Of a stretch of DNA of 64,000 nt, positions 31,605 to 54,630 are shown piece by piece. Location of the stretch: the sequence record NC_025447.1; one strand, written 5' to 3'. The position numbers were made by a program, and so were the translations under genes. Every line of letters begins with the position of its first letter. Within the stretch, counting starts at the first letter, position 1. Source of the DNA: Escherichia phage 121Q. The notes beneath the pieces are model-generated. The model had not been told where the DNA came from. It ran no database searches and worked only from the letters and a program-made list of their open reading frames with translations.

Positions 31605-31672
31605 TATTGTATGGGACATAATGTCCCATACATGATATAATGTTGTTATCATAATACAGAAGGAGATATAAA

Positions 31673-31861
31673 ATGGCTAAACAACCTAAGAAACAAGAAC
31701 CAGTAGCAAAAGTTAAGAAAGAGAAAGTTATTCAATCCAAAGAACAACGTATGTACGAACAACGTAAGAGTGAAACCCTATCCGGTCTACAAGCTCTACG
31801 CAAGCAAGGTGTACTAACTCGTGCACAGTACCGTGAACTAGTAGCTCAGAAAGGTTTTTGA
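31673..31861 (+). CDS. small basic protein
   Basis: RBS AAGGAG; Lys-rich. Confidence 0.45.
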   Translation: MAKQPKKQEPVAKVKKEKVIQSKEQRMYEQRKSETLSGLQALRKQGVLTRAQYRELVAQKGF

Positions 31862-31966
31862 TTCATTTGAAGCAATATTGTGGAGTTCTTAATAAATACT
31901 TTTATAAGAATAATAATACTTTTTATTAAATTAAAAAGAACTCCATGTGTTATTTCAGTTTTTCGT

Positions 31967-31991
31967 CCCTGTCTTTTGGCAGGGATTTTTT
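31967..31991 (+). terminator. rho-independent terminator
   Basis: CCCTG...CAGGG stem plus TTTTTT. Confidence 0.6.
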
Positions 31992-32663: not shown

Positions 32664-33002
32664 GTGAACTTTATGAACAAAATTGACGTTACTGTAGTGA
32701 TTGGTTATATTGAAATTGAACCGTGTGGCATTGATACCTTTATTGACACTCTTAATAAGTATCGTGCTGAATATAACGGTCACATTAGTCTTTCACCAGA
32801 CAGTGGTTACGGCGGTTTTCATGGATACAATGTAATTTGGACCAGAGAAGAAACTGACGAAGAATATAATACACGAATTGAAGCTGAATCTAAAAGATGT
32901 GAAGAAATTGAACGTCAAGAAATGAAACACTTAATGAACAAGAAATCATTAAGTACCGAAGAGAAATCTAAACTGCTAAAATACATCAAGGATTACATGT
33001 AA
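32664..33002 (+). CDS. hypothetical protein
   Basis: ORF in track. Confidence 0.45.
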   Translation: MNFMNKIDVTVVIGYIEIEPCGIDTFIDTLNKYRAEYNGHISLSPDSGYGGFHGYNVIWTREETDEEYNTRIEAESKRCEEIERQEMKHLMNKKSLSTEEKSKLLKYIKDYM

Positions 33003-33649
33003 TGAAAAATGTAACTCAAGAAAAGATTCTGTACCTTGCAAAGTACAATGGTGGTTTCAATATCATTAGCCGTGAGTACAGTGGTAATTTGGCTAAGTTG
33101 ATTGACAGTTTGTTAGAATTTGATTTCATTAAATGGGAAACTAATGAACTTTGGTACGAATATGCTGGTCAGAAATGGGAAAGTGATTATGATAATGCAA
33201 TACATTCATACACTATCACCAAAGCAGGTGAAGTTCGATTAGCCATTATGCGTTGTGCATATACTTACAAAAATCATAAAGGTGAAGAAAAACATATTCG
33301 CAGAAATGAAGAGCTATTACTTCTTATGGAAGCAGCAAAAGTTACAATGCATGATTTGTTCCACCACCCACGTTGGTATGAAAATCTAACAAAAGCAGAG
33401 TACAAAGCTTTACGTTACATTGATGAACAAAACAACACGGTTCAACAAGAACATGCTGAGGATGGTGAACTATCCATCAGAAATGTATTTGAGACTACCA
33501 ATACTGAAAGTATTACTGAAATTTCAGTGCAAATGGCTATCAAAGCTATGGAACTATTCAAAACACAATACGATGGTGTTAATTCAGATGAAGTAGAGCG
33601 TGAGTTCATTACGCGAGTACAAATTGCATTACATAAATCAAAAAAGTAG
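33002..33649 (+). CDS. hypothetical protein
   Basis: ORF in track. Confidence 0.45.
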   Translation: MKNVTQEKILYLAKYNGGFNIISREYSGNLAKLIDSLLEFDFIKWETNELWYEYAGQKWESDYDNAIHSYTITKAGEVRLAIMRCAYTYKNHKGEEKHIRRNEELLLLMEAAKVTMHDLFHHPRWYENLTKAEYKALRYIDEQNNTVQQEHAEDGELSIRNVFETTNTESITEISVQMAIKAMELFKTQYDGVNSDEVEREFITRVQIALHKSKK

Positions 33650-33655
33650 GTTCAT

Positions 33656-33835
33656 ATGAAATTTTTACTTGTACTAATCGCAGTTCTTATGGTATTATCT
33701 TGTTCAGTTAGTAATGGTTCATACATTTACGTATCAGTATTTGAAGAAGCTCCCGACAACTGTGTATTAACTCACACTGGAATTGTGTTAGTTAATGGTA
33801 AACCATCAATCGAGTACTTATGTATAGGTGATTAA
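33656..33835 (+). CDS. small putative lipoprotein (59 aa), not in ORF track
   Basis: hand-translated; signal peptide with lipobox-like LSC. Confidence 0.35.
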   Translation: MKFLLVLIAVLMVLSCSVSNGSYIYVSVFEEAPDNCVLTHTGIVLVNGKPSIEYLCIGD

Positions 33836-33838
33836 ATT

Positions 33839-34069
33839 ATGAAATTATTATATATTTTTATTATTTCTTCTATTGTATTTCTGAGTGGATGTGCTCCTAA
33901 AGTTGATGAGATGGATGCTGAAATCATCCGTCAAGGTTTAACAAAACTAAATCATCAAGGAACACTATACGCATGTCATACTATGCGTCATGGGCAAGAT
34001 CTTAACCTCATGTGCAGGAAGATTGTGAATCGCAAACGTCTTAATACTGTTCCGAAGGATGCACAATGA
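33839..34069 (+). CDS. small putative lipoprotein
   Basis: signal peptide ending in lipobox LSGC. Confidence 0.5.
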   Translation: MKLLYIFIISSIVFLSGCAPKVDEMDAEIIRQGLTKLNHQGTLYACHTMRHGQDLNLMCRKIVNRKRLNTVPKDAQ

Positions 34070-34236
34070 AAGAAGTAATTGACTACAAATGTAAAAATTG
34101 TGGCAAAGATAAGGGTAAGCATTCAGTACAAGGAATGGCTTGCCCGAATCCAGGTCGTGGTAATTTCAGAGGGTTCAGTACTGAAAAGTCTTACGAACCG
34201 GATCATACCAAACCTGTAATGGGTTATAAATTATGA
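34066..34236 (+). CDS. small zinc-ribbon protein (56 aa), not in ORF track
   Basis: hand-translated; CKNC...CPNP; overlapping stop/start on both sides. Confidence 0.35.
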   Translation: MKEVIDYKCKNCGKDKGKHSVQGMACPNPGRGNFRGFSTEKSYEPDHTKPVMGYKL

Positions 34237-34592
34237 GTGATTATGTAGCATTTCTTCATCGCTTTGGAGAAGCTAAAGAAAAACATATTATCCGTATGCC
34301 ATTATATGGTGAAAAAGACTGGTACAAAAGTACTATCAGTGTAGGTGCATTTCGTGACCGTGAAGCTGGATTCTTTCTGGGTAAGCAACATGAACGAGAG
34401 GTACTTTGCTCACTTTGGCGTTTAGATGAATGGGATAGTGAGAACGTAAGAACTGCTGAATCAATGATGGCTATTGTTGGTATTGCGAACTATCAGCACC
34501 CATATGATCTATTACCTACATTTGAACATGCTTCTTTGTTTGACTTTTACAAAGCAGTAGGGTATGATTATAAAAAGAAACGTTACGTTTAA
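34233..34592 (+). CDS. hypothetical protein
   Basis: ORF in track. Confidence 0.45.
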   Translation: MSDYVAFLHRFGEAKEKHIIRMPLYGEKDWYKSTISVGAFRDREAGFFLGKQHEREVLCSLWRLDEWDSENVRTAESMMAIVGIANYQHPYDLLPTFEHASLFDFYKAVGYDYKKKRYV

Positions 34593-34638
34593 CATCAGTA
34601 CTGCCATCGTGTGCAGTACTTTTTAATTGGAGATTACT

Positions 34639-39908: not shown

Positions 39909-39916
39909 TATAAATA
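39909..39916 (+). promoter_or_regulatory. T4-type late promoter box TATAAATA
   Basis: exact TATAAATA ~35 nt upstream of the tail-fiber gene start. Confidence 0.45.
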
Positions 39917-39950: not shown

Positions 39951-42647
39951 ATGTCAAAGAAAATATATGGTGGCTTGGATGTCACACATAATGTGACAGT
40001 TAATGGTAAAAGAACAATACAAGGTATCAATGATCAAGTATTTGATGCTAATGGCAATATGGAGCTAGATACTTATTCAAGAGATGAAGTACTAGATATC
40101 GTCAGTATGATGCCAATTTCCCATTATGGGTCACAAAACTATCTTCCTGCTGGTGTATCTGGTGATTTCAATGGTGCATCTGAAAACCAGTCCCAACGTA
40201 GAAATAAAATTTTATTAGAAAACGATGGTACACTCGTATTATTACGTAGTGGTACAAACGGTAGTGTTGAGGGATTATATTATTCATATTTGGCTAACGC
40301 ATTATCAGTTGATGACATGAGCCGTACAATTAACACCAGTCGTCAATACAAGCCTGGTTTTTTCGGTTCAAATCGCGTCGCAATTGGCTTATACAATACT
40401 GATCCAAATATTTTACTCGGTAGATATGTAGACACTTCTAACAGTACTAATGGATTGTTTATTTCTATTACTAATGGTACATTAGATGATAAATTACATA
40501 CTGGTTTTTTTGTAAATCAAGCAGATATTTGCCCTGAAGGTGGTATAGAATTTGCAATGATGGCTGAAGATGGTTCAATCTATGTCTTTAGTGTTCTTAA
40601 TGAAAATAACCAACTACAGTTAGTTGTTGTCCGAGTTGTATATAATATTAGCAATGGAACATATACGGCAACTCGTATTACAGGATGGACTACAAAAACA
40701 TTCTATAATACAACTTATTCTGCACAGAATAACATGGTTATTACTAATCAAGTAACTTCAACTAATATAGCAGATAAGCCTTATGTGTATGTACCACAAA
40801 ACCTACGTGGTATTGGGATTTATATGACATCCATTGATTTGTATGTTGCACAGCAACCAGGAACACAGAACTTTCGTTTTAGAATGAATGGTGATGCATG
40901 GTTTACAATGGCGACATATAATGCCCGACCACAACATAGCTACAGCTTTGCATTTAATATGAGTACTAAACAATGCACCCTAGACGCTGGGAATGACATA
41001 GGTTCATATCAAGCACCATTGGTTATAACCAATACTGGTTCTGCATTAGTGCCTACAGGTAACGTTTTAAATAATGATCCATTATATAATCATGCTAATG
41101 CAAGAAACATTTATAGTTCTTATTTTTACTTAAGTTCAGGTGAAGCTTTTTGTACTGTGTGTCCAAACTTAGCAGAACCATTACTTATGCAAAAAGCAAA
41201 GTTTCCTATACAAATTGTTTATAGTATGATTAACGTTCGTGCAGTACAATCAACTGATTTTAAAGGTGGAGTTGTTAGACCATCCTTTGGTTCAGCAGTT
41301 GGTTCATTTATTAATGGTGTGGAGTTGTTACCAGATAATAGTACTAAACAATATTCACGTGCGTCTGGTAGTGGTGGGTTTAGACCATCATATGCAGTTC
41401 ATAAAAGTACTCCTAATTTTACATTTAAATCATTATCTTTAGGAACCATACAAGGTTATGAACCTACAACTGAACGTGGTTATGTAGATGATAATGCCAA
41501 TAATAGAATTTTCATTAGTAGTATTTCAGGTTCAACTGTAACAACTAATGGCGGTATTTTTATGGTTGGTCAACGTTATTCACAATCATTTTCATATGAT
41601 AAAAACTTAAATGGTACTGGTGTTATTAGTGTTACACAATCAGTTCTAGATAACTTTAGAAATACAGAATATGCTAAAGTTCTAAGTGACTGGAACTTAT
41701 CTTCACAAGCTTATCGTGATATGACATTATTTGTTCCACAACAAACTGACATTCCGGCTTTTGTTATGTTGAGTACTATAACAAATGACTATAAAAACTA
41801 TATTAGAATTGCTGAAGTTAACGTTAATACTAGAGTTGGAAATATAACATCTATTACCTTTAAGCGTTTAGTACTAGAAAATACATATGGTGAAAACTTT
41901 ACACCTAATGGTAATGGTTCGATTGCATCTTCTTCTGTTGGGTTAACAATTTATGATGGTGGTTCATTCTACTTCATTGGTGGTTCTGACCCATTAACAC
42001 ATCCAACAATAGGAAATACAGCAACTCATCAATTTAGAGCATATGTAACTAAATCAACTGCACAATTTACAAGTTTTGTTATTACTGGTTCTCATGCCAG
42101 TTATGAACAAGGAAGACAACCCACTGCGTTGCCTGGTATTGGATTTGGTATTTTTGATCCACTGGATTATACAAATAAAATGTCATTTCAAAAATATGGA
42201 ACAACGATAGCCGACTATAATAACTGGACTCCACAAGGTAGCCCAATTAACGTAGTATCACAAGACGTTGCTCAAGGGTTTATTGTTTATTTTACAGAGG
42301 AAACACCAGTTATACTATCAGGTAAGTCTTTTACACTACCAGTTTCAAATATTGATTTGAGAACTATAAAATCTAATCCAGCAAATACAACATTTTATGT
42401 ATATGTTAAATTAGAACAAGGGTTGGCAAACTACTACATAACTACTGATGTTATTTCCGAAACAGGAACAACTGCATATAATATTTTTTGGATAGGTACT
42501 ATTCAAACTAACGCAATTCAAATCGAAACTATTAATATACAAAAACGTTCACGTTTAGATATATTTGGTGCTTCACTTGAATCAGCAGGTTCATCGTTCC
42601 CAGTTAGCTACGGTCTACCATCACAAACAGGAACCATAAACTGGTAA
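39951..42647 (+). CDS. tail fiber / receptor-binding protein, paralog 1 (898 aa)
   Basis: Asn/Ser/Thr/Gly-rich; N- and C-terminal modules shared with the next two ORFs; late promoter upstream. Confidence 0.5.
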   Translation: MSKKIYGGLDVTHNVTVNGKRTIQGINDQVFDANGNMELDTYSRDEVLDIVSMMPISHYGSQNYLPAGVSGDFNGASENQSQRRNKILLENDGTLVLLRSGTNGSVEGLYYSYLANALSVDDMSRTINTSRQYKPGFFGSNRVAIGLYNTDPNILLGRYVDTSNSTNGLFISITNGTLDDKLHTGFFVNQADICPEGGIEFAMMAEDGSIYVFSVLNENNQLQLVVVRVVYNISNGTYTATRITGWTTKTFYNTTYSAQNNMVITNQVTSTNIADKPYVYVPQNLRGIGIYMTSIDLYVAQQPGTQNFRFRMNGDAWFTMATYNARPQHSYSFAFNMSTKQCTLDAGNDIGSYQAPLVITNTGSALVPTGNVLNNDPLYNHANARNIYSSYFYLSSGEAFCTVCPNLAEPLLMQKAKFPIQIVYSMINVRAVQSTDFKGGVVRPSFGSAVGSFINGVELLPDNSTKQYSRASGSGGFRPSYAVHKSTPNFTFKSLSLGTIQGYEPTTERGYVDDNANNRIFISSISGSTVTTNGGIFMVGQRYSQSFSYDKNLNGTGVISVTQSVLDNFRNTEYAKVLSDWNLSSQAYRDMTLFVPQQTDIPAFVMLSTITNDYKNYIRIAEVNVNTRVGNITSITFKRLVLENTYGENFTPNGNGSIASSSVGLTIYDGGSFYFIGGSDPLTHPTIGNTATHQFRAYVTKSTAQFTSFVITGSHASYEQGRQPTALPGIGFGIFDPLDYTNKMSFQKYGTTIADYNNWTPQGSPINVVSQDVAQGFIVYFTEETPVILSGKSFTLPVSNIDLRTIKSNPANTTFYVYVKLEQGLANYYITTDVISETGTTAYNIFWIGTIQTNAIQIETINIQKRSRLDIFGASLESAGSSFPVSYGLPSQTGTINW

Positions 42648-52864: not shown

Positions 52865-53284
52865 ATGTTAAATGAACGTATTAAAAATGCACTACATGTA
52901 TTGAACCAAGAAGTCAATTCTATTCATAAAAGTACTGACCGTTATAAAGTAATGCATGAAATCAAACAAGAATTGGAATCTATTAATAAGGGAGAGTGGT
53001 GGTATCTTCAGCCCGAATATCAAACTCGTGAATTAAACGATGTTGAAAAAGAAATTGTCAAATTCATCACTACTCGTTATTGTGATACATCAGAGAATGA
53101 TGTATCAGCGAACTTCAATCTTACTAAATTGGAAGTCGAAGAAAAATTCCATTTTGATTGGCTTGATTGGATTGAAATGGTAATGGAACTAGAAGAAAAA
53201 TTCAATGTTGAAGTTGATGAAAAGTTCGAGAATAATGAAACTAAGCTGTATGAACTAGTAGAACATATTCAAAAAATGTTGTAA
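52865..53284 (+). CDS. hypothetical protein
   Basis: ORF in track with RBS. Confidence 0.45.
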   Translation: MLNERIKNALHVLNQEVNSIHKSTDRYKVMHEIKQELESINKGEWWYLQPEYQTRELNDVEKEIVKFITTRYCDTSENDVSANFNLTKLEVEEKFHFDWLDWIEMVMELEEKFNVEVDEKFENNETKLYELVEHIQKML

Positions 53285-53337: not shown

Positions 53338-53712
53338 ATGAGTATGTTAGAAATAATTGTTTCAAAAATTCTTATTCCATTTTGGAAACCAATTTCTTTT
53401 GTATTATTAATTGGCGGTTCAGCTTATGCTGGTTGGGAAGCTAATACTTATTACAGTGGATATCAACAAAGCATAGAGCAACAAATAGCTAAAAAAGTTG
53501 ATACCGCCTTGGATAAAATGCAACAAGAAAATGCAAAAAATTACCTTGAAACTAAAAAAATCATGGAAGATAATGCTAAAGTTATTGAAACAAAGGTTCC
53601 TTTTATTGTAGAACGTGAAGTTTATAAGAATGTATGTTTAGATGAAGATGGTGTAAAAGTACTGAATGAACTAAAACAAAATTCTCAAGCAGCGAGGAAT
53701 AAATTCAAATGA
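53338..53712 (+). CDS. putative i-spanin (Rz-like)
   Basis: N-terminal transmembrane segment then charged helical region; next gene is a lipoprotein with overlapping start. Confidence 0.45.
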   Translation: MSMLEIIVSKILIPFWKPISFVLLIGGSAYAGWEANTYYSGYQQSIEQQIAKKVDTALDKMQQENAKNYLETKKIMEDNAKVIETKVPFIVEREVYKNVCLDEDGVKVLNELKQNSQAARNKFK

Positions 53713-54017
53713 AAAAATTATTAGTTCCAATGATTTCTTTTTTAATTATAAGTGGGTGTGCCGAGCAAGTAAAACTACAATCCCCCGCACCAATTAAACA
53801 AGAAATTCTGTTAGAAAGATGTGATGATGATACACCTCTACCACAAAAAATTATGATTGACAAAAATGGTTTTAAAGGTTATGATGGTGCAGAAATTCTT
53901 AAAGTACTTACTCGTTGGGATGCAGTCTACAATGAATGTGCTTTAAAACACGACGCATTGATTAAAACTATTCGTGATTTACAAGGTAAAGATATTAAAA
54001 TCAATATCAAGGAATAA
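53709..54017 (+). CDS. putative o-spanin lipoprotein (Rz1-like)
   Basis: signal peptide with lipobox LIISGC. Confidence 0.45.
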   Translation: MKKLLVPMISFLIISGCAEQVKLQSPAPIKQEILLERCDDDTPLPQKIMIDKNGFKGYDGAEILKVLTRWDAVYNECALKHDALIKTIRDLQGKDIKINIKE

Positions 54018-54018
54018 A

Positions 54019-54630
54019 ATGAACAAATATCATGTTTACTATACGACAAAATTATCACTTCTTGAAGAATTAAATCAACGAAGTACTAAGATGAAACGCT
54101 ACACTTTAAATGGTATTACTTTTCGATATTTCCCACAAAAAGTTCTTACTTTTGTTAAGAATCCAAAATGCGTGGCATGTGGGATTGAAGCTACTGAAGT
54201 ACGCATTGAACGTTCATTATGTTCTGATCCAGTATATGGTAAACCACATTTAAATGTATATGCTGTATGTGGTCTTTATGAAGTTTTAATGACAGTTGAC
54301 CATAATCATCTGGCATCTAAGGGTGGACCTGATTTAGAGTCAAACTTTAATACTATGTGCTCCAGATGTAATCAACTACGTTCGAATAAAACTGAAACAG
54401 TTGATGAGTTTCTTGAGAAAGTTAAAGGTCGTAATCTTCTCCAAGAACATATGAATAATTTCTTTAATGTACAAAAAAAGAAAAATAACATTGACAAGTC
54501 GAAACTACTAGAAGAACGTAGGTTACGTCAAGAATTATGGGAAACTGATCATCTATGGCATGTTCGAGAGTTTGGTCGTCATATGAAAGCTTTGAAAAAA
54601 GAACAGAAGAAATTGAATAAACATGATTGA
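54019..54630 (+). mobile_element. HNH homing endonuclease gene
   Basis: Cys pair CVAC, HNH core VDHNHLASKGG...N...CSRCN. Confidence 0.6.

Follow-up and report, generated by a model that had tools for sequence, protein, structure and literature searches.

Phages carry small lipoproteins that remodel outer-membrane receptors from the periplasm (Llp, Cor and Rtp45), and how these act has been explained structurally only recently. Both Llp and Rtp45 are periplasmic outer-membrane lipoproteins that block receptors. Llp of phage T5 is lipidated, and its Cys11-Cys58 disulfide is essential for binding to FhuA (PMC9586334); its nuclear magnetic resonance structure (7QJF) consists of four beta strands and a 3-10 helix, and it is made early, as phages express their exclusion proteins early in infection. 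Rtp45 of phage Rtp, a protein of ~6 kDa, binds LptDE at the periplasmic interface of the outer membrane (PMC12685063). The known exclusion lipoproteins all come from siphophages, where each is encoded beside the receptor-binding-protein gene: llp is divergently adjacent to oad, and rtp45 abuts rtp44. Here we describe two adjacent genes for putative small lipoproteins, ORF1 and ORF2, in a 64-kb stretch (hereafter the window) of Escherichia phage 121Q (NC_025447.1), a jumbo coliphage of the Asteriusvirus type that has PBECO4, G17 and SHEFM2K among its relatives. All coordinates of open reading frames (ORFs) are positions in this window. The two genes are followed by a third small one, ORF3:

33656-33835, + strand: ORF1, putative prolipoprotein of 59 residues, phrog_22308 (unknown function)
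33839-34069, + strand: ORF2, putative prolipoprotein of 76 residues
34066-34236, + strand: ORF3, CCHC mini-protein of 56 residues, phrog_10623

Two genes for predicted outer-membrane lipoproteins

All three ORFs lie on the + strand exactly where a sequence-only reading of the window had placed them. We calculated the ratio of nonsynonymous to synonymous substitution rates (dN/dS) by the Nei-Gojobori method (NG86) against diverged relatives. The ratios were 0.15-0.18 (ORF1), 0.12-0.16 (mature part of ORF2), 0.04-0.12 (ORF3) and 0.13-0.36 (ORF4, the next gene downstream). Clearly, ORF1 and ORF2 are genuine genes under purifying selection. As the ORFs are so short and ORF2 falls into no meaningful PHROG or Pfam family, one could think of chance open frames in AT-rich DNA or of non-functional remnants; however, dN/dS values of 0.04-0.18 with many synonymous changes, conservation across genera, Shine-Dalgarno sequences, coupled translation starts and the strand bias of the window (80 long ORFs on the + strand vs 3 on the - strand) all contradict this explanation, which is already refuted by the conservation pattern and to which we give practically no weight. 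ORF1 and ORF3 are shorter than 60 residues, which would explain an absence from a program-made ORF track if this had a 60-residue minimum.

Signal peptides were searched for with a rule similar to PROSITE PS51257, which asks for K or R close to the N-terminus, a hydrophobic h-region free of charged residues, and a lipobox [LVI..][ASTVI..][GAS]-C whose Cys falls at position 15-35. Among the 240 ORFs of the window with an ATG start and at least 40 residues, the rule picked out just three: ORF1, ORF2 and an o-spanin gene at 53709-54017. The N-terminus of ORF1 reads MK-FLLVLIAVLM-VLS-C16; its leader (sequence MKFLLVLIAVLMVLS, followed directly by the Cys) covers residues 1-15 (33656-33700) and ends in a VLSC lipobox, the Cys16 codon being 33701-33703. 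That of ORF2 reads MK-LLYIFIISSIVF-LSG-C18, with the leader (sequence MKLLYIFIISSIVFLSG, again followed directly by the Cys) in residues 1-17 (33839-33889), an LSGC lipobox and the Cys18 codon at 33890-33892. Pfam LPAM_1 matches ORF2 weakly (E = 0.086). The signal peptides and lipobox cysteines that the sequence-only reading had seen in both ORFs, ending in LSC and LSGC, are thus borne out by the lipobox rule and by the conservation among homologs.

The lipobox Cys is invariant in all homologs of ORF1 and ORF2, distant ones included. The ORF1-type lipoboxes are VLSC in Turkey3/5, ISSC in A4, STAC in BF, fHe-Yen9-04 and pEa_SNUABM_19, and LSGC in Munch and fENko-Kae01. In the ORF2 family (19 sequences), the leader is on average 38% identical and the h-region 27%, the mature part being 80% identical; Gly(-1) and Cys(+1) never vary, and position +2 is taken by A, T or S. 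A variable leader, an invariant Gly-Cys and a conserved mature part are together what one would expect of a lipoprotein leader that is cleaved off. According to the +2 rule of E. coli, lipoproteins without Asp at +2 are sorted to the outer membrane by the Lol-dependent pathway. Across the homologs of both ORFs, position +2 holds S, A, T, V or R, with Asp in none of them, so that the rule predicts the outer membrane as the destination. From these sequence features we infer lipidation and outer-membrane location, and it is highly probable that both ORF1 and ORF2 are true outer-membrane lipoproteins.

After cleavage, ORF1 would leave a mature protein of 44 residues (4.7 kDa, isoelectric point (pI) 4.3) with Ser at +2 and two conserved non-lipid cysteines, Cys21 and Cys41 in mature numbering. 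The AlphaFold2 (AF2) model of this domain is confident (predicted local distance difference test (pLDDT) score 84) and shows four beta strands. Homologs of ORF1 are found in the Eneladusvirus phages BF, fHe-Yen9-04 and pEa_SNUABM_19 as well as in Munch, fENko-Kae01 and A4, each with the lipobox Cys and the two further Cys. Mature ORF2 would have 59 residues (6.8 kDa, pI 9.3) with Ala at +2, and its conserved non-lipid cysteines, Cys29 and Cys42 in mature numbering, belong to a motif Y-x-C-H...L-x-L-M-C-R-K; its AF2 model, of moderate quality (pLDDT 66), combines a single helix with three strands. Distant homologs of the two proteins (in Serratia phage BF, Yersinia phage fHe-Yen9-04, Munch, EJP2 and Hallingskeid) are 35-45% identical and keep the lipobox Cys and the two Cys. 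Since each mature domain has two conserved extra cysteines, a periplasmic disulfide is probable.

The two proteins are not related to each other, as alignment of the mature domains by hhalign gave no relationship and paralogy was rejected. The second Eneladusvirus lipoprotein, of the BF gp127 type, matches ORF2 weakly in hhalign across both Cys (E = 5e-4). Neither ORF1 nor ORF2 gave anything significant in Pfam, NCBIfam or PADLOC (defence and anti-defence), and sequence searches of the PDB were empty; for ORF2 there was no significant PHROG match either, the best, phrog_20679 (E = 0.0082), covering just residues 2-21 of the signal peptide. A word-indexed search of 5.8 billion proteins and a hidden Markov model (HMM) search of 1.84 billion returned a few phage and metagenome relatives and no bacterial family. 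In the exhaustive HMM search, made on 1.84 billion representative proteins, only three genuine ORF2 clusters were found, with 63-75 residues and all with a lipobox and the Y-x-C-H...L-x-C-R motif. The papers that we consulted on the Asteriusviruses Sharanji, fEgEco12 and JP4 mention neither lipoproteins nor superinfection exclusion, and our searches led to no study of these genes. ORF1 and ORF2, already present in public genomes as hypothetical proteins, are two orphan families of predicted small phage-encoded outer-membrane lipoproteins.

Small outer-membrane lipoproteins with extra Cys are also found among o-spanins, and we considered whether ORF1 and/or ORF2 could be Rz1-like lysis proteins. 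The phage has, however, a canonical overlapping spanin pair elsewhere, at 53338-54017. The i-spanin (53338-53712) has 124 residues, an N-terminal transmembrane segment and a match to phrog_1152, 'Rz-like spanin' (E = 6.6e-29); the o-spanin (53709-54017), which overlaps it by ATGA, is a 102-residue lipoprotein of phrog_2425 with an ISGC lipobox, and the annotation of SHEFM2K holds the same pair. Moreover, no i-spanin-like gene, with an N-terminal transmembrane segment and a coiled coil, lies beside ORF1 and ORF2, their proline content is just 3-5%, and ORF1 is missing in most relatives. Since the phage's own pair is located at 53338-54017, a spanin identity of ORF1 or ORF2 is effectively refuted and can hardly be credited any longer. 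Around the spanin genes we also noted an HNH endonuclease ORF (53974-54630, phrog_23285) that overlaps the 3' end of the o-spanin gene, and, just upstream of the pair, a 139-residue ORF (52865-53284) with weak acyl-carrier-protein-like matches (phrog_5934, E = 1e-7; phrog_4154, E = 5e-6).

Gene layout, exchange of the lipoprotein genes and the CCHC neighbor

ORF1 and ORF2 belong to a compact unit with ORF3 and ORF4, within which an exchangeable module was delimited by blastn junction mapping:

34233-34592, + strand: ORF4, protein of 119 residues of unknown function, phrog_9342; last gene of the unit
34597-34620, + strand: intrinsic terminator with an 8-bp stem, AGTACTGC...GCAGTACT, then TTTTT; closes the ORF1-ORF4 unit
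33663-33878, + strand: exchangeable module, made up of the ORF1 body and the coding region of the ORF2 signal peptide

The equivalent site in G17 also bears an annotated terminator. The Shine-Dalgarno sequence of ORF2, AGGTGA, sits inside the 3' end of ORF1, and ATGA overlaps join the stop of ORF2 to the start of ORF3 and the stop of ORF3 to the start of ORF4. The operon is surrounded by the nucleotide-metabolism region of the phage, with genes for PhoH, dCMP deaminase and NrdD/G, and the closest tail genes are ~15.6 kb downstream of the lipoprotein genes. A scan for sigma-70 promoters performed at chance level (24 found vs 24.6 expected), so that the timing of expression is not readable from promoters and only the absence of the T4-type late-promoter motif TATAAATA, which was not found in the ORF1-ORF4 operon, is informative. 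On the + strand of the window, this octamer is present in one copy, at 39909, vs ~10.5 expected from base composition, and the copy lies in an intergenic gap 42 nt upstream of a gene for an 898-residue protein (39951-42647, phrog_3573). One well-placed copy and depletion otherwise suggest that the octamer serves as a promoter and is avoided at other sites.

Upstream of the operon, two further features were seen. Directly before ORF1 is a gene for a 215-residue protein (33002-33649), whose homolog in fENko-Kae01 is ENKO_152 (282 residues; 244-1092 in the compared stretch); because the GenBank record of ENKO_152 says 'identified with LC-MS/MS analysis', the product may be virion-associated despite the location of its gene among those for nucleotide metabolism. 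Further upstream, at 31613-31641, the hairpin ATGGGACATAATGTCCCAT is continued by a promoter-like site of the extended -10 type, TGATATAAT; a lysine-rich ORF of 62 residues (31674-31862), beginning with MAKQPKKQEPVAKVKKEK, lies just downstream of the hairpin and is followed by a strong terminator (31965-31986).

In a comparison of the 4-kb stretch around the locus, 34 phage records matched at 87-97% nucleotide (nt) identity, including SHEFM2K, CRJP21, G17, Sharanji and PBECO4. Over a wider range, the gene order GroES ... 112-residue gene ... 215-residue gene ... lipoprotein(s) ... 208-residue gene - dCMP deaminase is kept across Asteriusvirus, Eneladusvirus, Munch/Kae01-like phages, EJP2 and Hallingskeid, and it is the lipoprotein position that varies. 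Both genes are present in the window, SHEFM2K, Turkey3/5 and A4; in BF, Yen9-04 and pEa_SNUABM_19 the order is reversed, and an ORF2-like gene overlaps an ORF1-like one; the ORF1 type stands alone in Munch and Kae01, and the ORF2 type alone in EJP2 and Hallingskeid. Full-length ORF1 is found in 12 of ~36 related (Asteriusvirus) records and is an accessory gene. ORF2 is nearly universal within the genus (near-core).

Exchange takes place even inside ORF2. In G17 and PBECO4, the module at 33663-33878 is replaced by ~1.6 kb carrying a WGR-domain gene, a gene for a 126-residue protein and an alternative ORF2 signal peptide, and homology to the window resumes 11 nt before the lipobox Cys codon of ORF2; between the window and G17, the ORF2 leader region is 55% and the mature region 100% identical at the nt level. 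In WPEC5 the order is ORF1, the 126-residue gene and ORF2 with a G17-type leader, with no WGR gene (470-850 in the compared stretch). Leader types b and c are each combined with both mature-domain types, A and B. Such reassortment of leader and mature types shows recombination at the lipobox. ORF1 can also decay: in ph0011 it has an internal deletion and a premature stop. In the Salmonella-propagated SD phages (SD-2_S15, SD-1_S14, SD-6_S16 and SD-15_S21), whose genomes are smaller (310-326 kb), ORF1 has been lost together with the ORF2 leader. What remains of ORF2 is its mature domain, which lacks both a start codon in frame and a signal for export (~880-1095 of the compared stretch in SD-2_S15) and in which '...CVLCGC' is left directly after a stop codon; the remnant is annotated from an internal Met, as a protein of 52 residues. 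That ORF1 is exchanged, deleted or pseudogenized in close relatives and that the SD phages have lost both lipoproteins would fit accessory genes for host interaction.

The alternative cassette fills the ORF1 position in ~2/3 of the Asteriusviruses (2167-3769 of the compared stretch in G17; also in PBECO4). It encodes a 323-residue protein whose C-terminal part is a WGR domain (Pfam, E = 1.1e-10), as well as the 126-residue protein of unknown function, the gene of which is always accompanied by its own ORF2 signal peptide (MKNIF...LCGC). A MazG-like nature guessed for short remnant ORFs in G17 and PBECO4 had no Pfam support and was withdrawn. The locus itself is mosaic: its flanks are nearest to G17 and Sharanji (97% nt identity), but it is SHEFM2K, CRJP21, E9.1 and JP4, with flanking DNA of just ~94% identity, that encode exactly the same ORF1 and ORF2 proteins. 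Identical lipoproteins in less similar flanks indicate a recent exchange of the module between co-circulating Asteriusviruses.

ORF3 had been taken for a zinc-ribbon peptide clustered with the lipoproteins, and neither part of this description held. It has three Cys only, and the ligand set C9, C12, H19 and C26 (then P27) forms a C-x2-C-x6-H-x6-C (CCHC) arrangement with no second CxxC knuckle. The zinc-ribbon models Zn_ribbon_8 of Pfam (E = 0.17) and TIGR02605 of NCBIfam (E = 0.14) scored far below their cut-offs. In 10 diverse homologs C-x2-C-x6-H-x6/8-C-P is invariant, followed by F-x-G-F...Y-x-P-D..K-P, and metal binding by this CCHC site is predicted from the pattern; having no signal peptide, ORF3 is predicted to be cytoplasmic.

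Tight packing and translational coupling in the window, and the recurrence of lipoprotein and ORF3-type genes in one syntenic region of several jumbo phages, could mean that ORF1-ORF3 are one functional three-gene module. ORF3 is, however, absent in A4 and replaced in Turkey5, both of which keep the two lipoproteins, and its homologs in Phapecoctavirus and Erwinia phage S6 have no lipoprotein neighbors; 173 phage records, mostly of Phapecoctavirus but including an N4-like Erwinia phage, carry homologs of ORF3. In addition, ORF3 lacks a signal for export, and the ORF3-type domain of Munch and Kae01 is the C-terminus of a 169-residue protein (1492-2001 and 1153-1662 of the compared stretches, respectively), fused to a different, cytoplasmic-looking domain. 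Because ORF3 is lost or replaced beside the lipoproteins and found without them elsewhere, the link appears to be positional only, and a common three-gene function is very unlikely. In EJP2 and Hallingskeid, a counterpart of the fused domain, of ~110 residues, is encoded just upstream of the ORF3 type (2190-2740 and 4829-5576 of the compared stretches). This partner, which starts with MK..(A/V)(I/V)D(S/T)S, gives a Rosetta-stone-type link; the window has no such partner, and Hallingskeid has in addition a tandem ORF3 paralog of 61 residues. A Pfam search with the ~110-residue partner domain gave no match, and a vWA-like guess for the domain fused to ORF3 in Munch, likewise with no Pfam support, was withdrawn.

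Proposed function and its alternatives

Based on the analogy with Llp, Cor and Rtp45, we tentatively propose that ORF1 and ORF2 exclude superinfecting phages or inactivate a receptor from within the periplasm, a possibility that we favor while holding it with well below even confidence. The sequence-only reading had likewise suggested superinfection exclusion or receptor masking, which is a reasonable analogy. Each precursor would be exported by Sec, lipidated at the lipobox Cys and cut by signal peptidase II, and the 44-residue domain of ORF1 and the 59-residue domain of ORF2, probably stapled by a disulfide and rich in beta strands, would face the periplasm under the outer membrane. Transcribed together with their nucleotide-metabolism neighbors, probably before the late genes, the two proteins would bind, on its periplasmic face, a host structure that phages use for entry and that lies in the outer membrane or spans the envelope, and infected cells as well as lysis debris would then stop adsorbing or admitting further phage. 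ORF3 would be a separate cytoplasmic metal-binding mini-protein that merely shares the operon. Early expression, the disulfide and the exclusion target are elements that we infer; the proposal is favored because of the architecture similar to that of Llp and Rtp45, the accessory exchange, and the position among nucleotide-metabolism genes in an operon that has no late-promoter motif.

Several results weigh against exclusion. When T5 llp and Rtp rtp45 were compared directly with ORF1 and ORF2 by blastp and hmmsearch, the signal peptides aligned and nothing else did, and the NCBIfam model of Cor (NF047972) gave no match to ORF1 or ORF2 at E up to 1. Homology to Cor, Llp and Rtp45 was rejected, since NCBIfam, PHROGs and the direct comparison yielded an alignment of the signal peptides only. 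There is no detectable fold match of ORF1 or ORF2 to these three proteins, the ORF2 model being of moderate quality. No receptor-binding-protein gene is adjacent to ORF1 and ORF2, unlike the situation of llp and rtp45. Finally, the presence of ORF1 does not co-vary with the 929-residue tail protein, which is at least 99.7% identical in phages with and without ORF1, a comparison that covered one of many fiber genes.

The same lack of linkage to receptor-binding-protein genes would be compatible with lipoproteins that modify the host envelope for the phage's own replication or lysis program and exclude no other phages, for example by inhibiting a muralytic enzyme that is periplasmic or anchored in the outer membrane, by setting the timing of lysis, or by protecting from lysis-from-without as T4 Spackle does. 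Such a role would also suit ORF2, because a near-core protein with a mature domain of 80% mean identity fits a conserved enzyme target better than a variable receptor. However, Pfam, NCBIfam and PHROGs revealed no likeness to known lysozyme inhibitors or lysis regulators; the mature domains, of 44 and 59 residues, are below the size of inhibitors of the MliC/PliC type, which have ~100 residues; 20 kb separate the locus from the spanin genes; and ORF1 is dispensable in 2/3 of the relatives. We consider this role unlikely.

The lipoproteins may alternatively act on another envelope machine and thereby reprogram the infected cell, exclusion being secondary. Candidates include the flagellum (basal body or stators), RcsF-mediated Rcs sensing, Bam, Lpt and Tol-Pal. 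fENko-Kae01, which has an ORF1 homolog, was experimentally found to be flagellum-dependent, and SHEFM2K, which has an identical ORF1, is reported to use flagellar structures; furthermore, Rtp45 shows that a phage lipoprotein of ~6 kDa can dock on an essential machine, LptDE. On the other hand, this evidence is purely circumstantial and comes with no predicted partner, and many Asteriusviruses with presumably the same entry route lack ORF1. An action on another machine also seems unlikely to us.

Returning to exclusion, a more far-reaching version is conceivable in which ORF1 and ORF2 would be two new, sequence-orphan exclusion families of jumbo phages whose target is no classical porin or TonB-dependent receptor. 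In that case ORF1 could dock from the periplasm on the flagellar L/P-ring, the rod, the stators or a secondary surface receptor, and could switch off the entry of flagellotropic phages, which would be a new exclusion mechanism, and the swapping of ORF2 leaders at the lipobox would reflect an arms-race hotspot. We regard this version as a long shot.

Jumbo myoviruses are promoted for therapy, and their receptors and exclusion systems are essentially unknown. If ORF1 and ORF2 do exclude phages, they would lead to the terminal receptor that Asteriusvirus and Eneladusvirus phages use, and the members of a phage cocktail would be expected to interfere with each other; if not, they are two further accessory genes of unknown function. 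The swapping of signal peptides at the lipobox is a neat case of modular recombination inside a gene, with no new principle.

Comparison with described systems

ORF3 resembles small CCHC or zinc-ribbon-like mini-proteins of phages in its short length, its N-terminal CxxC knuckle and its further conserved ligands, and differs from the zinc-ribbon models in having no second CxxC. ORF1 and ORF2 share with o-spanins, that of this phage included, the small size, the lipobox and two extra Cys, and ORF2 also Ala at +2; however, the gene of an o-spanin accompanies an i-spanin gene or lies within it, and such a partner is missing for ORF1 and ORF2.

Imm and Sp are named in the exclusion literature as exclusion proteins of T4. 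Both are made early and act on the envelope. Their genes, imm and sp, are embedded in regions for early replication and nucleotide metabolism and lie apart from the tail genes. Like ORF1 and ORF2, they are genes of a large virulent myovirus amid nucleotide-metabolism genes. Imm is an inner-membrane protein and Sp (Spackle) a soluble periplasmic inhibitor of the tail lysozyme, neither being a lipoprotein, and a PHROG search showed no homology of ORF1 or ORF2 to them.

The closest resemblance in size and Cys content is to the exclusion lipoproteins of siphophages (the values of ORF1 and ORF2 are for the predicted cleavage sites):

T5 Llp: precursor 77 residues, mature 62 residues, Ser at +2, two extra Cys
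Rtp45: precursor 76 residues, mature 57 residues, Ser at +2, two extra Cys
ORF2: precursor 76 residues, mature 59 residues, Ala at +2, two extra Cys
ORF1: precursor 59 residues, mature 44 residues, Ser at +2, two extra Cys

Rtp45 comes from a small siphophage and is unrelated in sequence, whereas ORF1 and ORF2 come from a jumbo myovirus; the 76-residue precursor of ORF2 would nevertheless give, like that of Rtp45, a mature lipoprotein of the ~6-kDa class with two extra Cys, and Rtp45 shows that the class of exclusion lipoproteins is polyphyletic in sequence. In the case of Llp, the target is FhuA, and the FhuA of the hosts is not implicated for ORF1 and ORF2; early expression is known for Llp and would be expected for ORF1 and ORF2 by inference only. 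Still, like T5 Llp, ORF1 and ORF2 are predicted small prolipoproteins of a virulent phage, each with a mature domain of ~5-7 kDa that appears to be rich in beta strands and carries two extra Cys.

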